A stretch of DNA of 9,605 nt from the IMG/VR virus record IMGVR_UViG_2706794696_000003. One strand, given 5' to 3'. Position numbers and translations under genes: made by a program. This stretch comes from a virus. Lineage: Duplodnaviria > Heunggongvirae > Uroviricota > Caudoviricetes. Of this stretch, positions 1,836-5,800 are shown piece by piece (positions within the stretch are counted from its first letter, which is position 1; each line of letters starts with the position of its first letter). A model generated the notes under the pieces. It searched no databases. It saw only the letters and a list, made by a program, of their open reading frames with translations, and was not told the origin of the DNA.

Positions 1836-2206
1836 TGCGCCATGAGTTTATTTTACCTTATCCGCCGACGGTGAATACTTACTGGCGACGTCGTGGCAGC
1901 ACATATTTTGTATCAAAAGTTGGTGAGCGTTATCGCCGTGATGTGACGCTAATTGTTCGCCAGCAGCGGCTGAAATTAAACCTGTCCGGAAGGCTGGCGA
2001 TAAAGATTATTGCAGAGCCACCGGATAAGCGCCGTCGTGACCTGGACAATATCCTGAAAGCACCACTGGATGCGCTGACGCATGCCGGACTACTCATAGA
2101 CGACGAGCAGTTTGATGAAATCAATATTGTGCGCGGTCAGCTCGTTCCTGGTGGGCGACTGGGCGTGAAGATTTATGAAATCACAGGTGATAACGATGGC
2201 GCGTGA
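1835..2206 (+). CDS. rusA: RusA-family Holliday junction resolvase
   Basis: 123 aa. N-terminus [12 protein letters not shown] and the motif RRRDLDN...DDEQ match the RusA family (acidic catalytic residues in a conserved layout). Sits in the nin region upstream of Q, as is typical. Confidence 0.9.
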
Positions 2207-2582
2207 TATTCAGCAGGTTATGGAACGGTGGGGGGCTTGGGCTGCAAACACTCATGAAGATGTATCCTGGGCGTCGATCGCTGCTGGTTTTAAAGGGTTA
2301 ATTCCGTCGAAAGTGAAATCACGCCCTCAGTGTTCTGATGATGATGCAATGATAATTTGTGGCTGTATGGCCCGGTTGAACAAGAAAAATCAGGATTTGC
2401 ACGATTTGCTGGTGGATTATTACGTAGGTGGAATGACTTTTATGAGTCTGGCACGGAAACATGGGTGTTCGGATACCTGTATTGGCAAGCGCCTGCAGAA
2501 AGCGGAAGGGGTTATTGATGGCATGTTGATGATGCTTGATATCCGGCTGGAGATGGACAGATACGTAGAACGAATTATGTAG
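2196..2582 (+). CDS. late-gene antitermination protein Q (QuuD-like)
   Basis: N-terminus [23 protein letters not shown] and the [10 protein letters not shown] motif resemble the DLP12 QuuD-type Q proteins as recalled. Start chosen at ATG 2196 (AGGTGA at 2183-2188, 7-nt spacing), overlapping the rusA end by 11 nt; ATG 2175 from the ORF track is possible. Confidence 0.85.
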
Positions 2583-2586
2583 GTGC

Positions 2587-2616
2587 TTGACCAGACACAT
2601 TGTCCGGGGCTATATT
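2587..2616 (+). promoter_or_regulatory. candidate late promoter PR' (sigma70-like) directly after Q
   Basis: TTGACC at 2587-2592, 18-bp spacer, TATATT at 2611-2616, beginning 5 nt after the Q stop codon. Position and orientation match lambdoid PR'/qut organisation. Inferred from sequence pattern only. Confidence 0.5.
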
Positions 2617-2677
2617 CCTCACGCGCCAGCAAAATCTGGCGTCGGGATTGGAACCCCGGATAGAGACCGCGACAGAC

Positions 2678-2700
2678 ACACGCCGCGAGCGTGTTTTTTA
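2678..2700 (+). terminator. candidate intrinsic terminator (tR'-like)
   Basis: Hairpin ACACGC / GCGTGT with a 5-nt loop, followed by a T-run at 2695-2699, about 75 nt downstream of the predicted PR' start. Confidence 0.5.
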
Positions 2701-2827
2701 TTGTCGTATGCACGCGCACATCTGAATTATGGTGGGGCGCATGGGGGAGCTGAAAAGCTCGCCGGTCGGTTTCCCGGTAGTTCCAACCCTGTGCGTCTCA
2801 CCACCCGATGATTGGAACCTGACGGTG

Positions 2828-2856
2828 TTGACAGTTTCAGGTTTGCAGTTTACATT
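2828..2856 (+). promoter_or_regulatory. candidate sigma70 promoter for the cargo gene
   Basis: Consensus -35 TTGACA at 2828-2833, 17-bp spacer, -10 TACATT at 2851-2856, about 200 nt upstream of the ORF6N gene start. Confidence 0.4.
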
Positions 2857-2891
2857 TCCCCGCGGTGCTCAAAACACCTCGAAAGCGGTAT

Positions 2892-2919
2892 CCACACCCG
2901 ATAGCCATGTGGTTTTTTT
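2892..2919 (+). terminator. weak hairpin plus U-tract (possible attenuator or alternative tR')
   Basis: CCACA / TGTGG stem with an 11-nt loop followed by seven T (2913-2919). The stem is short, so confidence is low. Confidence 0.3.
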
Positions 2920-3062
2920 GTGTCCAGAATTCTTGGTTTATGACCGGGTGTGCGGCTAATACAATACCAGCAATGGAAATACGCCCGCCGACTTTCGACG
3001 GTTTTGAGCGCCCGGTCACCCTCTCAAAAGGGGTAAATCAAAATATTCGAAAGGACATGTCT

Positions 3063-3626
3063 ATGAATCGCACGTCTATTGAAAAACTCCCGTCACTTAC
3101 GCATAACCATCTTCCTGTCATGACAACAGAGCTGCTGGCTGATTTGTACGGAACAGAGCGCCAGCGTTTGACAAACAATTTCAATCGAAACAAAGAACGG
3201 TTTATAGAAGGTAAACATTTTTTCCTGATAGAAGGTGATGCGTTACGAGAGTTGAAGAACGAAAACTCTTTAAGAGTTTCTGTGAAAATTGCCCGTAACG
3301 TTCGCTCCCTCATCCTCTGGACAGAACGTGGCGCAGCCCGTCACGCCAAAATGCTCGAAACCGATCAGGCGTGGGAAGTGTTCGAAAAACTGGAAGACTG
3401 TTATTTCAACCAGAAACAGCCACCAGCGGCACAAAACACATCTATCGAAAATGATGGATGCGCATTACTGAGCCACTTCGATAAACACGGTCAGGTTGAG
3501 TTCACGGAAAAGGTACCCGCCGATGCGATGGTATGTACTCTGGAACGGTTTAAATTTTATCTGGAGCAACACGGGTGGATCGTTGCCCGTAAAGAGCAAC
3601 TGGTGGAGCGGTTGATGCGGTTTTAA
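3063..3626 (+). CDS. ORF6N-domain protein (antirepressor/Rha-like N-terminal domain, uncharacterised C-terminus)
   Basis: 187 aa from ATG 3063 (AAGGA at 3051-3055, 7-nt spacing). The segment ELLADLYGTERQRLTNNFNRNKERFIEG...LILWTERGAARHAKML matches the ORF6N domain pattern as recalled. The longer ORF-track start at 2865 is rejected because it begins inside the predicted promoter and has odd composition. Confidence 0.8.
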   Translation: MNRTSIEKLPSLTHNHLPVMTTELLADLYGTERQRLTNNFNRNKERFIEGKHFFLIEGDALRELKNENSLRVSVKIARNVRSLILWTERGAARHAKMLETDQAWEVFEKLEDCYFNQKQPPAAQNTSIENDGCALLSHFDKHGQVEFTEKVPADAMVCTLERFKFYLEQHGWIVARKEQLVERLMRF

Positions 3627-3701
3627 AAATTTTTTCCGAAAACTTTACGATCGTAAAAAGTTGAATATCCTGTTAAGAGTGGTTACTACGCCACACAGCT
3701 T

Positions 3702-3727
3702 AAACCCGCCGATGAGCGGGTTTTTTT
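3702..3727 (+). terminator. intrinsic terminator after the cargo gene
   Basis: AAACCCGC / GCGGGTTT stem with a CGATGA loop, followed by seven T (3721-3727). Confidence 0.7.
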
Positions 3728-3777
3728 ATACCTGAAAAACGGCACAGGACGTTAAACGTGCTGGTGGTCAGATGAGT

Positions 3778-3806
3778 TTGCAGATGTGATGACATATGGT
3801 TATTAT
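3778..3806 (+). promoter_or_regulatory. candidate promoter of the tRNA array
   Basis: TTGCAG at 3778-3783, 17-bp spacer, TATTAT at 3801-3806, then a GC-rich discriminator (TCTGCCTCC) just before the mature 5' end of the first tRNA at 3816, as seen in stable-RNA promoters. Confidence 0.35.
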
Positions 3807-3815
3807 TCTGCCTCC

Positions 3816-3892
3816 GGCCCTTTAGCTCAGTTGGTCAGAGCGAGCGACTCATAATCGCCAGGTCGCTGGTTCAAGTCCAGCAAGGGCCACCA
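3816..3892 (+). tRNA. tRNA-Ile2 type (genomic anticodon CAT, ileX/ileZ-like)
   Basis: 77 nt. Cloverleaf folded by hand: acceptor GGCCCTT / AAGGGCC, anticodon loop CTCATAA, T-loop TTCAAGT, 3' CCA encoded. Overall sequence resembles the lysidine-modified Ile2 tRNA, not elongator Met. Confidence 0.8.
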
Positions 3893-3893
3893 A

Positions 3894-3970
3894 CCACCAC
3901 TAGCTCATCCGGATAGAGCATCAACCTTCTAAGTTGACGGTGCGAGGTTCGAGTCCTCGGTGGTGGGCCA
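3894..3970 (+). tRNA. tRNA-Arg (anticodon TCT, reads AGA)
   Basis: 77 nt. Acceptor CCACCAC / GTGGTGG, D-stem GCTC/GAGC, anticodon stem TCAAC/GTTGA with loop CTTCTAA, T-arm CGAGG-TTCGAGT-CCTCG, 3' GCCA. Begins 1 nt after the previous tRNA. Confidence 0.85.
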
Positions 3971-3972
3971 GC

Positions 3973-4048
<76 letters not shown>

Positions 4049-4051
4049 TAT

Positions 4052-4126
<75 letters not shown>

Positions 4127-4254: not shown

Positions 4255-4449
4255 ATGGTGCATTGTCNNNNNNNNNNNNNNNNNNNNNNNNNNNNNNNNN
4301 NNNNNNNNNNNNNNNNNNNNNNNNNNNNNNNNNNNNNNNNNNNNNNNATTGGTGTGCTGGGAAGTCTGCTTCTGGGGCTTCTGACTTATCTGACAAATCT
4401 GTATTTCAAAATAAGAGAAGACAAGCGTAAGGCTGCGAGAGGTGAATAA
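4255..4449 (+). CDS. S: class II holin / pinholin (phage 21 S-like), interrupted by an N-run
   Basis: The post-gap segment 4348-4449 encodes [33 protein letters not shown], matching the C-terminal half of the phage 21 S pinholin as recalled; its stop overlaps the endolysin start (TAATG). The N-terminal part lies in or before the N-run. ATG 4255 is in frame only if the gap length is exact, so the start is provisional. Confidence 0.55.
4268..4347. other. run of 80 N (assembly gap or masked bases)
   Basis: Directly visible in the sequence. It falls inside the holin coding region. Confidence 0.99.
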
Positions 4450-5449: not shown

Positions 5450-5800
5450 ATGCCATCACTAATCCCACGTGCCTGCCGTAAGCGTGGATGTGCAGGTACA
5501 ACCACAGACAGTTCGGGTTACTGCGATAAACATCGCGGTGAAGGCTGGGTGCAGCACCAGCGCGGACTGAGCCGCCACCAGCGTGGCTATGGCTCAAAAT
5601 GGACGGTGATTCGTGCCCGTATTCTGAAGCGCGATAAAGGTCTGTGTCAGTTGTGTCTGCGTGTCGGTGTGGTGAGCGAGGCGAAAACCGTCGACCACAT
5701 CATCCCGAAAGCGCATGGCGGAACAGACGCAGACAGCAACCTGCAGAGTCTGTGCTGGCCCTGCCATAAAGCGAAAACAGCGCGCGAACGAATCCGGTGA
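5450..5800 (+). CDS. HNH endonuclease (packaging-associated, HK97 gp74-like)
   Basis: 116 aa. Cys-rich zinc-binding pairs (CRKRGC, CDKH, CQLC, CWPCH) and the HNH motif (DHIIPKAHGG...N). GAGGT ribosome-binding site 4 nt upstream. Located immediately upstream of the terminase genes. Confidence 0.9.
   Translation: MPSLIPRACRKRGCAGTTTDSSGYCDKHRGEGWVQHQRGLSRHQRGYGSKWTVIRARILKRDKGLCQLCLRVGVVSEAKTVDHIIPKAHGGTDADSNLQSLCWPCHKAKTARERIR

Follow-up and report, generated by a model that had tools for sequence, protein, structure and literature searches.

The gene ant, at 3063-3626 of a 9,605-nucleotide (nt) stretch of viral DNA (IMG/VR virus record IMGVR_UViG_2706794696_000003; this whole stretch is called the window below), lies at the late-region junction of a lambdoid prophage, between the gene for the Q antiterminator (2175-2582) and the lysis genes. 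Our reading, to which we assign a probability of about 75%, is that ant is an ordinary phage antirepressor gene of the AnrP/ORF6N family that is held silent by two serial antisense-RNA modules, the first an IsrK-C4 module as in the Salmonella prophage Gifsy-1 (module 1) and the second built around the small RNA (sRNA) sRNA-Xcc1 (module 2). A preliminary description of this DNA had recognised where the gene sits but took it for a self-contained cargo gene in the position where Shiga toxin (Stx) phages carry stx; since the gene is an ordinary antirepressor gene, this "stx-slot cargo" reading is to be dropped.

Module 1 occupies what had been described as a late-promoter region upstream of the gene; the region holds isrK/c4-a1b1 and C4 RNAs, and its features are as follows:

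2587-2616, plus strand: module 1 promoter, TTGACC-18-TATATT, the counterpart of Gifsy-1 PisrK, at the expected late-promoter position
2610-2662, plus strand: c4-a1b1 RNA (Rfam RF03163, 50.1 bits, gathering score 46.7)
2623-2699, plus strand: isrK (Rfam RF01394, 77.5 bits, gathering score 50), an IsrK-like short RNA that is the target RNA of C4
2725-2808, plus strand: C4 antisense RNA (Rfam RF01695, 71 bits, gathering score 45)
2729-2959, plus strand: upstream open reading frame (uORF) of 76 codons, starting at the position of Gifsy-1 orf45 (transcript nt 107)
2812-2818, plus strand: b2 remnant of module 1, UUGGAAC, identified from alignments with relatives

The IsrK RNA and its terminator (2678-2699) stand directly 3' of Q, which ends at 2582, as in Gifsy-1. 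IsrK presents a b1 loop, UUGGAAC (2648-2654), and an a1 site, GAGACCG (2663-2669), and these are complementary to the b' segment GUUCCAA (2780-2786) and, with one G-U pair, to the a' segment CGGUUUC (2767-2773) of C4. Among the window, Gifsy-1, SCU-125, EC12, Nil2 and RMDEC465, which represent five types, the partner segments covary. The joining region of C4 (b') changes with the loop of the second IsrK hairpin (b1) as GUUCCAA/UUGGAAC, ACGCCAA/UUGGCGU and GUGCUAA/UUAGCAC, and the loop of C4 hairpin 2 (a') changes with the site just 5' of the IsrK terminator (a1) as CGGUUUC/GAGACCG, CGGUGA/UCACCG, GGUUGA/UCAACC, GUUUCGA/UCGAAAC and UCCGUA/UACGGA. The TTGAC and GGGGCTATATTCC elements of the module 1 promoter are invariant in Gifsy-1, Nil2, SCU-125, a Salmonella locus (L155) and RMDEC465. 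Two side observations belong here: the loop of the first IsrK hairpin, GCAAAAUC (2629-2636), is invariant in all module 1 copies seen and is not the segment that covaries with C4, and a CAAAAT sequence resembling a -10 element at about +8 to +13 of the IsrK transcript may serve Q loading as a sigma-70 pause element.

Gifsy-1 (NC_010392) already provides the precedent for the gene and for where it sits: its order is Q (STM2617), isrK, C4, STM2616 (AnrP), isrJ, a tRNA gene and the lysis genes. The window shares with it the succession of Q, promoter, IsrK with terminator, C4-like RNA (STnc1160 in Gifsy-1), ORF6N antirepressor, tRNA and lysis genes, and the isrK-C4 DNA is highly similar (mean column identity 84% in a four-way alignment). 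In Gifsy-1, PisrK transcribes anrP, the read-through mRNA is translationally silent, and IsrK acting in trans raises its translation more than 100-fold by way of orf45, the effect being mainly translational (139-fold, versus 8-fold on transcription); AnrP increases expression of antQ and causes prophage induction (Hershko-Shalev et al. 2016, PMC4825925). The window differs from Gifsy-1 in several ways: its Q is 135 amino acids (aa) long rather than 225 aa; isrJ, which scores 100 bits in Gifsy-1, has no match at E values up to 10 within 2550-3800; and the overlap of the orf45 stop with the anrP start is lost. The uORF measures 14, 33, 44, 45 or 76 codons among relatives, its stop overlaps the antirepressor ATG in Gifsy-1 only, and in the window it ends 98-104 nt 5' of the ant start, depending on the start codon (3057 or 3063), so that coupling of the orf45 type is absent. 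We rejected the uORF as a real protein because of this variable length and the lack of coupling to ant; it is probably not functional as such.

A further difference from Gifsy-1 lies between C4 and the gene. In relatives that have module 1 only, b2 and then a2 follow C4, and a2 abuts the Shine-Dalgarno sequence of ant, while in the window about 230 bp take the place of this a2/Shine-Dalgarno junction and bring in the promoter P2, a leader with its own terminator, sRNA-Xcc1 and a new ribosome-binding site. Relative to SCU-125, Nil2 antA and Gifsy-1, these ~230 bp are an addition between b2 and the start of ant that the window shares with E. coli EC12, and the same block stands alone 5' of Nil2 antB, where the depositors labelled it "promoter by homology". 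The features of this part of the window are:

2828-2856, plus strand: P2, promoter of module 2, TTGACA-17-TACATT (-35 at 2828-2833, -10 at 2851-2856), located between C4 and Xcc1
2864-2919, plus strand: short leader RNA of module 2, ~57 nt, defined by alignments and by covariation with Xcc1
2942-3025, plus strand: sRNA-Xcc1 (Rfam RF02221, 77.4 bits, gathering score 53), matched over the full model length
3019-3055, plus strand: target region in the ant leader, with hairpin CCCU-CUCAAAA-GGGG holding b2 (3023-3029), and a2 (3047-3053)
3063-3626, plus strand: antirepressor gene ant (ORF6N N-terminal domain and a small C-terminal domain), 187 aa, or 189 aa from the alternative ATG at 3057

The near-consensus promoter that the preliminary description assigned to the gene is present as P2. 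A scan of the window alone does not single it out: 4 promoter-like sites were found against 2.7 +/- 1.8 expected and 2 terminators against 2.0, neither above chance. Comparison across Xcc1 modules does, since 89 of 92 distinct contexts have a -35/-10 pair (spacing of 16-18 nt, score of at least 8/12) whose distance to the first hairpin is constant, versus 2% of random positions; the promoter sequences differ among these contexts and the position is kept, and P2 is therefore convincing by comparison only. Judged from this comparative evidence, P2 is real but belongs to the RNA module. The description of a self-contained cargo unit accordingly stands for the gene's own promoter, its terminator and its mobility as a cassette, and not for the gap of some 200 nt between P2 and the start of ant, which holds the leader and Xcc1.

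Within module 2, the leader folds into a hairpin (GGUG-CUCAAAA-CACC) that holds b1 (2868-2874), followed by a1 (UCGAAAG, 2879-2885) and by a terminator hairpin with U7 (2892-2919), the stem of which shows a compensatory change (CCACA/UGUGG versus CCGCG/UGCGG). Xcc1 carries a' (CUUUCGA, 2992-2998) in its hairpin-2 loop and b' (UUUUGAG, 3002-3008) in its 3' joining region, and the downstream a2 (UCGAAAG) overlaps the Shine-Dalgarno sequence AAAGGA (3050-3055) that precedes the ATG of ant at 3063 (or 3057). In all three enterobacterial variants a1, a' and a2 change together, from UCGAAAG/CUUUCGA/UCGAAAG in the window type to CAAGUAG/CUACUUG/CAAGUAG in the Nil2 antB type and UCAGUAG/CUACUGA/UCAGUAG in the EC12 type. 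A species-wide scan added about 90 further Xcc1 loci, mostly from Xanthomonadales and also from Moraxellaceae, Chromobacterium and other groups. The 99 unique loci have 47 a' types and 13 b' types, and an exact complement of the locus's own a' (at least 7 nt, within 120 nt upstream) is present in 92% of them, versus 4.5% for non-self segments; for b' the figures are 92% and 16%. Taken in register, positions 2-8 of a' are paired with a1 without exception (93 of 93 loci), and positions 4-7 each occur with all four Watson-Crick types. For nine a-types, all in phage-borne loci and including the tandem second copies in L010 and L025, a2 is complementary to the a' of the same locus and either adjoins the Shine-Dalgarno sequence or overlaps it. 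Xcc1 is thus like c4 in that it has two variable segments with covarying flanking complements and, in phage-borne loci, a downstream target that lies on the Shine-Dalgarno sequence.

The tandem arrangement itself deserves description: L010 (4971-5054 and 5547-5630) and L025 (10760-10843 and 11331-11415) each have two Xcc1 modules about 575 nt apart with different a'/b', and each copy has a matching a2/b2 of its own at the Shine-Dalgarno sequence of the following gene, which suggests that the two may serve as orthogonal RNA locks within one phage.

Site-level energies agree with this specificity. Whole-RNA calculations with RNAduplex were uninformative, as they ignore intramolecular structure, and we used site-level duplexes together with the covariation counts. 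Cognate a'/a2 duplexes have -8.7 to -9.9 kcal/mol versus -2.5 to -6.0 kcal/mol for non-cognate ones, which makes them 3-6 kcal/mol more stable. Binding of Xcc1 is far stronger at the leader sites than at those of the mRNA, with -16.5 (a'/a1) and -19.4 (b'/b1) versus -8.8 and -6.2 kcal/mol.

These sites suggest how the two modules could work. In module 1 (2587-2818), the promoter directly after Q would make the short, terminated IsrK with a1 and b1, and read-through would yield the C4-type RNA, whose a' and b' would pair with a1 and b1 of IsrK. In module 2 (2828-3055), P2 would make the ~57-nt terminated leader with b1 and a1, and read-through would yield Xcc1 followed by the ant message. The a' and b' of Xcc1 would then pair with a2, on the Shine-Dalgarno sequence, and with b2, in the hairpin loop, and so block ribosome binding; the short P2 leader, in excess, would act as a higher-affinity decoy that titrates Xcc1 and switches ant translation on, as IsrK does, and, as in P4, Xcc1 bound to a1/b1 may in addition impose termination at 2919. 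During induction, Q-modified polymerase would be expected to read through 2699, 2919 and 3727. By homology, and as has been argued for AnrP, the ant product would inactivate the prophage repressor and promote or reinforce induction. We infer repressor binding, the direction of regulation and read-through by Q from these parallels; the sites, the homology, the covariation and the conserved promoter position are observations.

Several observations weigh against this reading. Repressor binding by ORF6N proteins is argued from Gifsy-1 genetics. The module 1 promoter is a candidate Q-dependent late promoter; its core is also present in copies that have no adjoining Q. The a2 and Shine-Dalgarno target of module 1, kept in Gifsy-1, SCU-125 and Nil2 antA, is lost in the window and replaced by module 2. 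The a2 and b2 duplexes are only 7 bp long, most Xcc1 loci (those of Xanthomonadales) have a1/b1 without a2/b2, and, when the entire P2 transcript is folded, the minimum-energy structure has the leader paired to Xcc1 in cis, which leaves the sign of the regulation in cis uncertain.

The absence of a2/b2 in Xanthomonadales means that the core action of the family may be on the upstream leader, by control of termination, and not on the ribosome-binding site, and this points to the chief rival explanation, in which module 2 works like P4 immunity: processed Xcc1 would act on a1/b1 of the nascent leader to enforce termination at 2892-2919, and occlusion through a2/b2 would be secondary or absent. 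In the discussion of P4 in PMC4825925, its immunity is described as a CI RNA acting with seqA/seqC by premature termination to control replication genes, and the authors of the Gifsy-1 work noted the likeness of IsrK to the P4 seqA RNA and raised this model. On that description, P4 resembles the present system in that a processed RNA pairs upstream and downstream in its own operon and in that the upstream target resembles IsrK; it differs in that the gene controlled here is an antirepressor. The a1/b1 pairing is universal and stronger than a2/b2, and a1 directly abuts the terminator hairpin, which favours this explanation. Yet all the phage-borne antirepressor loci examined have a covarying a2/b2 whose a2 lies on the Shine-Dalgarno sequence, and in Gifsy-1 the effect on translation far exceeds that on transcription (PMC4825925). 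We consider control chiefly by termination unlikely, though it is the alternative to be taken most seriously, and the termination and ribosome-binding-site mechanisms are not mutually exclusive. In the Xanthomonadales loci (L032-L151), where a1/b1 match and both promoter and terminator are conserved, the closing stem of Xcc1 is GGGAGG/CCUCCC and the Shine-Dalgarno sequence of the next gene is GGAGG; a different, anti-Shine-Dalgarno mechanism may therefore apply there.

What remains for module 1 can be judged from RMDEC465 (L153, 3265-3700), where the b' of C4, GUGCUAA, matches the b1 of its own IsrK and the b2 before P2 is the non-cognate UUGGAAC. It follows that the b2 remnant travels with module 2 and is not selected to match C4. 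Since the a2/Shine-Dalgarno target of module 1 is lost in the window and the b2 of RMDEC465 is non-cognate, the role of module 1 is probably elsewhere, at the terminator of IsrK or on other prophages in trans. The converse possibility, that module 2 is an inert recombination scar and ant is controlled by module 1 only, as in Gifsy-1, could draw on the position of the junction inside sequence homologous to module-1-only relatives and on the uORF that runs through it. We regard it as scarcely credible: the three-way covariation is maintained, prophages of the Shigella type, of E. coli and of Salmonella all keep the composite, and module 1, having no a2/Shine-Dalgarno target of its own, would by itself be unable to occlude the ant ribosome-binding site.

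The protein encoded by ant is in keeping with antirepressor control. The profile search proposed in the preliminary description confirms the ORF6N domain recognised there (PF10543, residues 15-99 of 189, E value 9e-21; 74.4 bits versus a gathering score of 27.8), and at E values up to 1 it is the sole Pfam match, with no match to ANT/KilAC, AntA or Bro-N; NCBIfam has no family for the protein. The last 65 or so residues had been said to match nothing; in fact phrog_2379, labelled "anti-repressor", spans residues 3-189 (E value 3e-85), and other PHROGs match the C-terminus alone. The nearest database protein is an ORF6N protein of Shigella sonnei (P0001, 187 aa, 99% identical), and the family has 4906 members at E < 1e-5, with a uniform length of ~185-188 aa in Escherichia, Shigella, Salmonella and Citrobacter. 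With Gifsy-1 AnrP the protein is 49% identical over 184 aa (E value 6e-58), with an identical 33-residue core and full-length alignment with the family, but in the C-terminal 60 residues the two are only ~25% identical. The C-terminal 75 residues alone retrieve 11 cluster representatives among 1.84 billion, some of the matches being fused to Phage_pRha or to AntA and Ash N-terminal domains, and the C-terminus is, by these relatives, a small, narrowly distributed module shuffled among phage regulator/antirepressor families. Structure prediction of the C-terminal region, also proposed earlier, yielded little: the AlphaFold2 model (mean predicted local distance difference test score, pLDDT, 69) is confident for the N-terminal domain only, the C-terminal domain has a pLDDT of 52-63, and neither Foldseek against the PDB (best E value 0.69) nor a profile search of PDB sequences gave a match. 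The long open reading frame from a GTG (2865-3626) is an artefact that reads through the RNA element.

PADLOC returned weak, domain-level ORF6N matches to the candidate PDC-S05 (E value 1e-7), which we did not accept as defence-system membership, the matches being weak and at the level of the domain only. They do bear on another explanation, that the ORF6N protein is a toxic or DNA-binding effector (KilA-N-like, for abortive infection or exclusion) with the RNA as its antitoxin-like silencer. It would account for the location of Xcc1 5' of SymE toxin genes in Xanthomonadales, which a preprint also records (10.1101/2025.06.18.660453), and for the growth arrest of Salmonella on overexpression of IsrK/AnrP; that toxicity, however, was traced to AntQ, downstream of AnrP, and AnrP itself induced the prophage (PMC4825925). 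Since the PHROG label and the partners of the C-terminal module (pRha, AntA, Ash) all belong to phage regulatory or antirepressor families, we find a toxic effector rather improbable.

Lambdoid phage morons have their own promoter and terminator between conserved genes. The preliminary description had made ant such an autonomous moron, a lysogenic-conversion or host-interaction gene expressed in the lysogen from its own promoter and boosted by Q read-through, and the likeness is real as far as the conserved promoter, the strong terminator and the insertion of the cassette in several slots of related phages go; related prophages differ in whether they have the private promoter. The product is nevertheless, by homology, a phage regulatory protein kept silent by RNA and not a host-fitness factor expressed from the prophage. 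It belongs over its full length to an antirepressor family and is homologous to AnrP, the leader holds a terminator as well as a cognate antisense RNA directed at the Shine-Dalgarno sequence, relatives nearly always have the gene together with Q-isrK-C4, and anrP of Gifsy-1 is translationally silent in the lysogen (PMC4825925); this homology argues against expression from the repressed prophage with benefit to the host. Nor is the base composition deviant, as would be looked for in a moron: the G+C fraction is 0.42-0.50 in ant versus 0.46-0.54 in its neighbours. The finding that had been named in advance as telling against a moron, the gene as a fixed, collinear element in related prophages, was largely obtained, in that Gifsy-1 and SCU-125-type E. 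coli prophages carry it collinearly after Q without a private promoter. An independent moron thus seems highly unlikely to us.

We return to the reading of an RNA-silenced antirepressor with the distribution of the cassette. The gene is associated with these RNAs among relatives: 48 of 53 non-redundant IMG/VR loci that encode them have C4 and/or Xcc1 directly upstream. There are 39 loci with C4 only (with or without a recognisable isrK motif), 1 more with the isrK motif alone, 6 with the isrK-C4-Xcc1 composite and 2 with Xcc1 only, and in 39 of the 53 phage loci the ATG is ~75 nt 3' of C4. Many Salmonella genomes have the composite too, behind a DUF1133 gene and with the a-type of the window, and it is also found in E. 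coli RMDEC465; the protein of the Salmonella composite (P0115) is found in 234 blocks of the collection. Module 2 is present in 152 of 5426 complete E. coli genomes and is unannotated in all 152; in O157:H7 TW14359 it stands 5' of a "phage antirepressor Ant" gene in the nin region. The comparison of related prophages that had been suggested as a check on slot variability shows the promoter-leader-Xcc1-gene cassette in different phage slots, namely after Q in the window and in the nin region of Nil2, O157:H7 TW14359 and RMDEC465. Elsewhere, Xcc1 modules precede Bro-N/P22_AR_N antirepressor-type genes and, in Xanthomonadales, SymE toxin genes. Homologues P0005, P0115 and P0085 have N-terminal extensions of 28-44 residues that are translated Xcc1 or C4 elements, and at locus L154 (2321-2539) the uORF is called as a 72-aa gene in one assembly; these extensions and this call look like start-codon and gene-call artefacts from unannotated RNAs. 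The 24B_1/d_ant small RNA of phage Phi24B (PMC4426718) was set aside as belonging to a different locus (3' of lom, with d_ant after R).

The features that flank the cassette are these:

2175-2582, plus strand: gene for the Q antiterminator (PF06530, E value 2.7e-52; phrog_79)
3627-3727, plus strand: 3' untranslated region (UTR) of ant and intrinsic terminator (3702-3727)
3816-4126, plus strand: four tRNA genes (CAT, TCT, TGT and TCC anticodons), between the ant cassette and the lysis genes

The gene order in the window runs from a DnaB-like helicase, RusA, Q, the ant cassette and the four tRNAs to the holin, lysozyme, Rz/Rz1, an HNH endonuclease, the terminase subunits and the portal gene; the tRNA genes thus stand between ant and the lysis cassette. 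The strong terminator described for the gene is present at 3702-3727 as AAACCCGC-CGATGA-GCGGGTTT with a T run (8 pairs, 5 of them G-C). The ant 3' UTR (3627-3701), which has no Rfam match, is ~95% conserved in EC12 and SCU-125 and occupies the same place as the isrJ sRNA of Gifsy-1; it could be an unrelated 3'-UTR sRNA. The same four tRNA genes occur in RefSeq locus L153, where they are annotated Ile, Arg, Thr and Gly; the first is Met(CAT) according to ARAGORN and tRNA-Ile in the RefSeq homologue, and is probably tRNA-Ile2. A promoter-like TTTGCA-18-TATTAT lies just 5' of the cluster (3777-3806, in the region 3777-4126). A run of N at ~4270-4350 masks part of the holin gene, and open reading frames across it are unreliable. 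The HNH endonuclease gene (5450-5800) stands directly 5' of the genes for the small and large terminase subunits, as is usual in HNH-terminase packaging modules.

Another of the closest known systems is the immI operon of P1/P7 (c4 antisense RNA, icd and ant), the logic of which is that of the module-1-only relatives. According to PMC7313666 and PMC8201110, which cite Citron and Schuster (1990), c4 RNA of P1 immI controls ant through complementary sites; so far as that system is described there, it shares with the window a processed antisense RNA from the transcript of its own target, with two short recognition segments, that controls an antirepressor, sites both upstream (a1/b1) and downstream (a2/b2, at the ribosome-binding site), and phage-specific types. 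The window differs in that its antirepressor belongs to another protein family, in that it has no coupled open reading frame like icd, in its lambdoid location after Q, and in that the module 2 RNA comes from a different Rfam family outside the C4 clan.

The family itself has been seen differently. The original description of sRNA-Xcc1, from Xanthomonas campestris, is said to make it an sRNA carried by an integron, controlled by HrpG/HrpX and acting in trans, with distant targets predicted for it. As at the Xanthomonas loci, promoter, hairpin/a1/terminator leader and RNA occur in the same order at every locus examined; unlike there, the window has the RNA in a prophage between Q and the lysis genes and not in an integron cassette, with cis-linked targets before an antirepressor gene. 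In Xanthomonas, sRNA-Xcc1 has been shown experimentally to be a stable, discrete RNA of 88 nt (PMC2996969).

Two aspects appear to be new, namely sRNA-Xcc1 as a cis-linked regulator of the c4 type and the stacking of two such modules. A paper on the APSE phage notes an Xcc1 copy 5' of an ORF6N gene and the 2025 preprint 10.1101/2025.06.18.660453 has Xcc1 5' of symE, both without a link to c4; no other link of Xcc1 to c4 or to antirepressors was found in the literature searched, which does not include the original 2011 sRNA-Xcc1 paper by Chen et al., so prior recognition is possible. A paper on vesicles of Shiga toxin-producing E. coli (PMC12370729) gave no usable evidence of Xcc1 expression in E. 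coli.

Together, these results allow a tentative generalisation, to which we give somewhat less than even odds: sRNA-Xcc1 may be a second, widespread class of programmable, c4/CI-like RNA-immunity regulators that gate the next gene, and not a free trans-acting virulence sRNA, stacked here behind IsrK-C4 as a two-lock antirepressor switch. If so, each Xcc1 copy would comprise its own promoter, a terminated decoy leader and two address segments (at least 47 a' and at least 13 b' variants), and the RNA would gate antirepressors in phages and SymE toxins in integrons. The comparative result gives an Rfam family whose function has been unclear a mechanism that can be tested, and explains the location of the family before antirepressor and toxin genes. 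Annotation pipelines miss these RNA elements, and some database proteins have false N-terminal extensions translated from them. Short orthogonal address pairs could serve as synthetic RNA switches. For the phages themselves, the variable a'/b' addresses would set up immunity groups at the level of RNA, on which cross-induction among co-resident prophages would depend, which would matter for the induction of Stx and Salmonella prophages.

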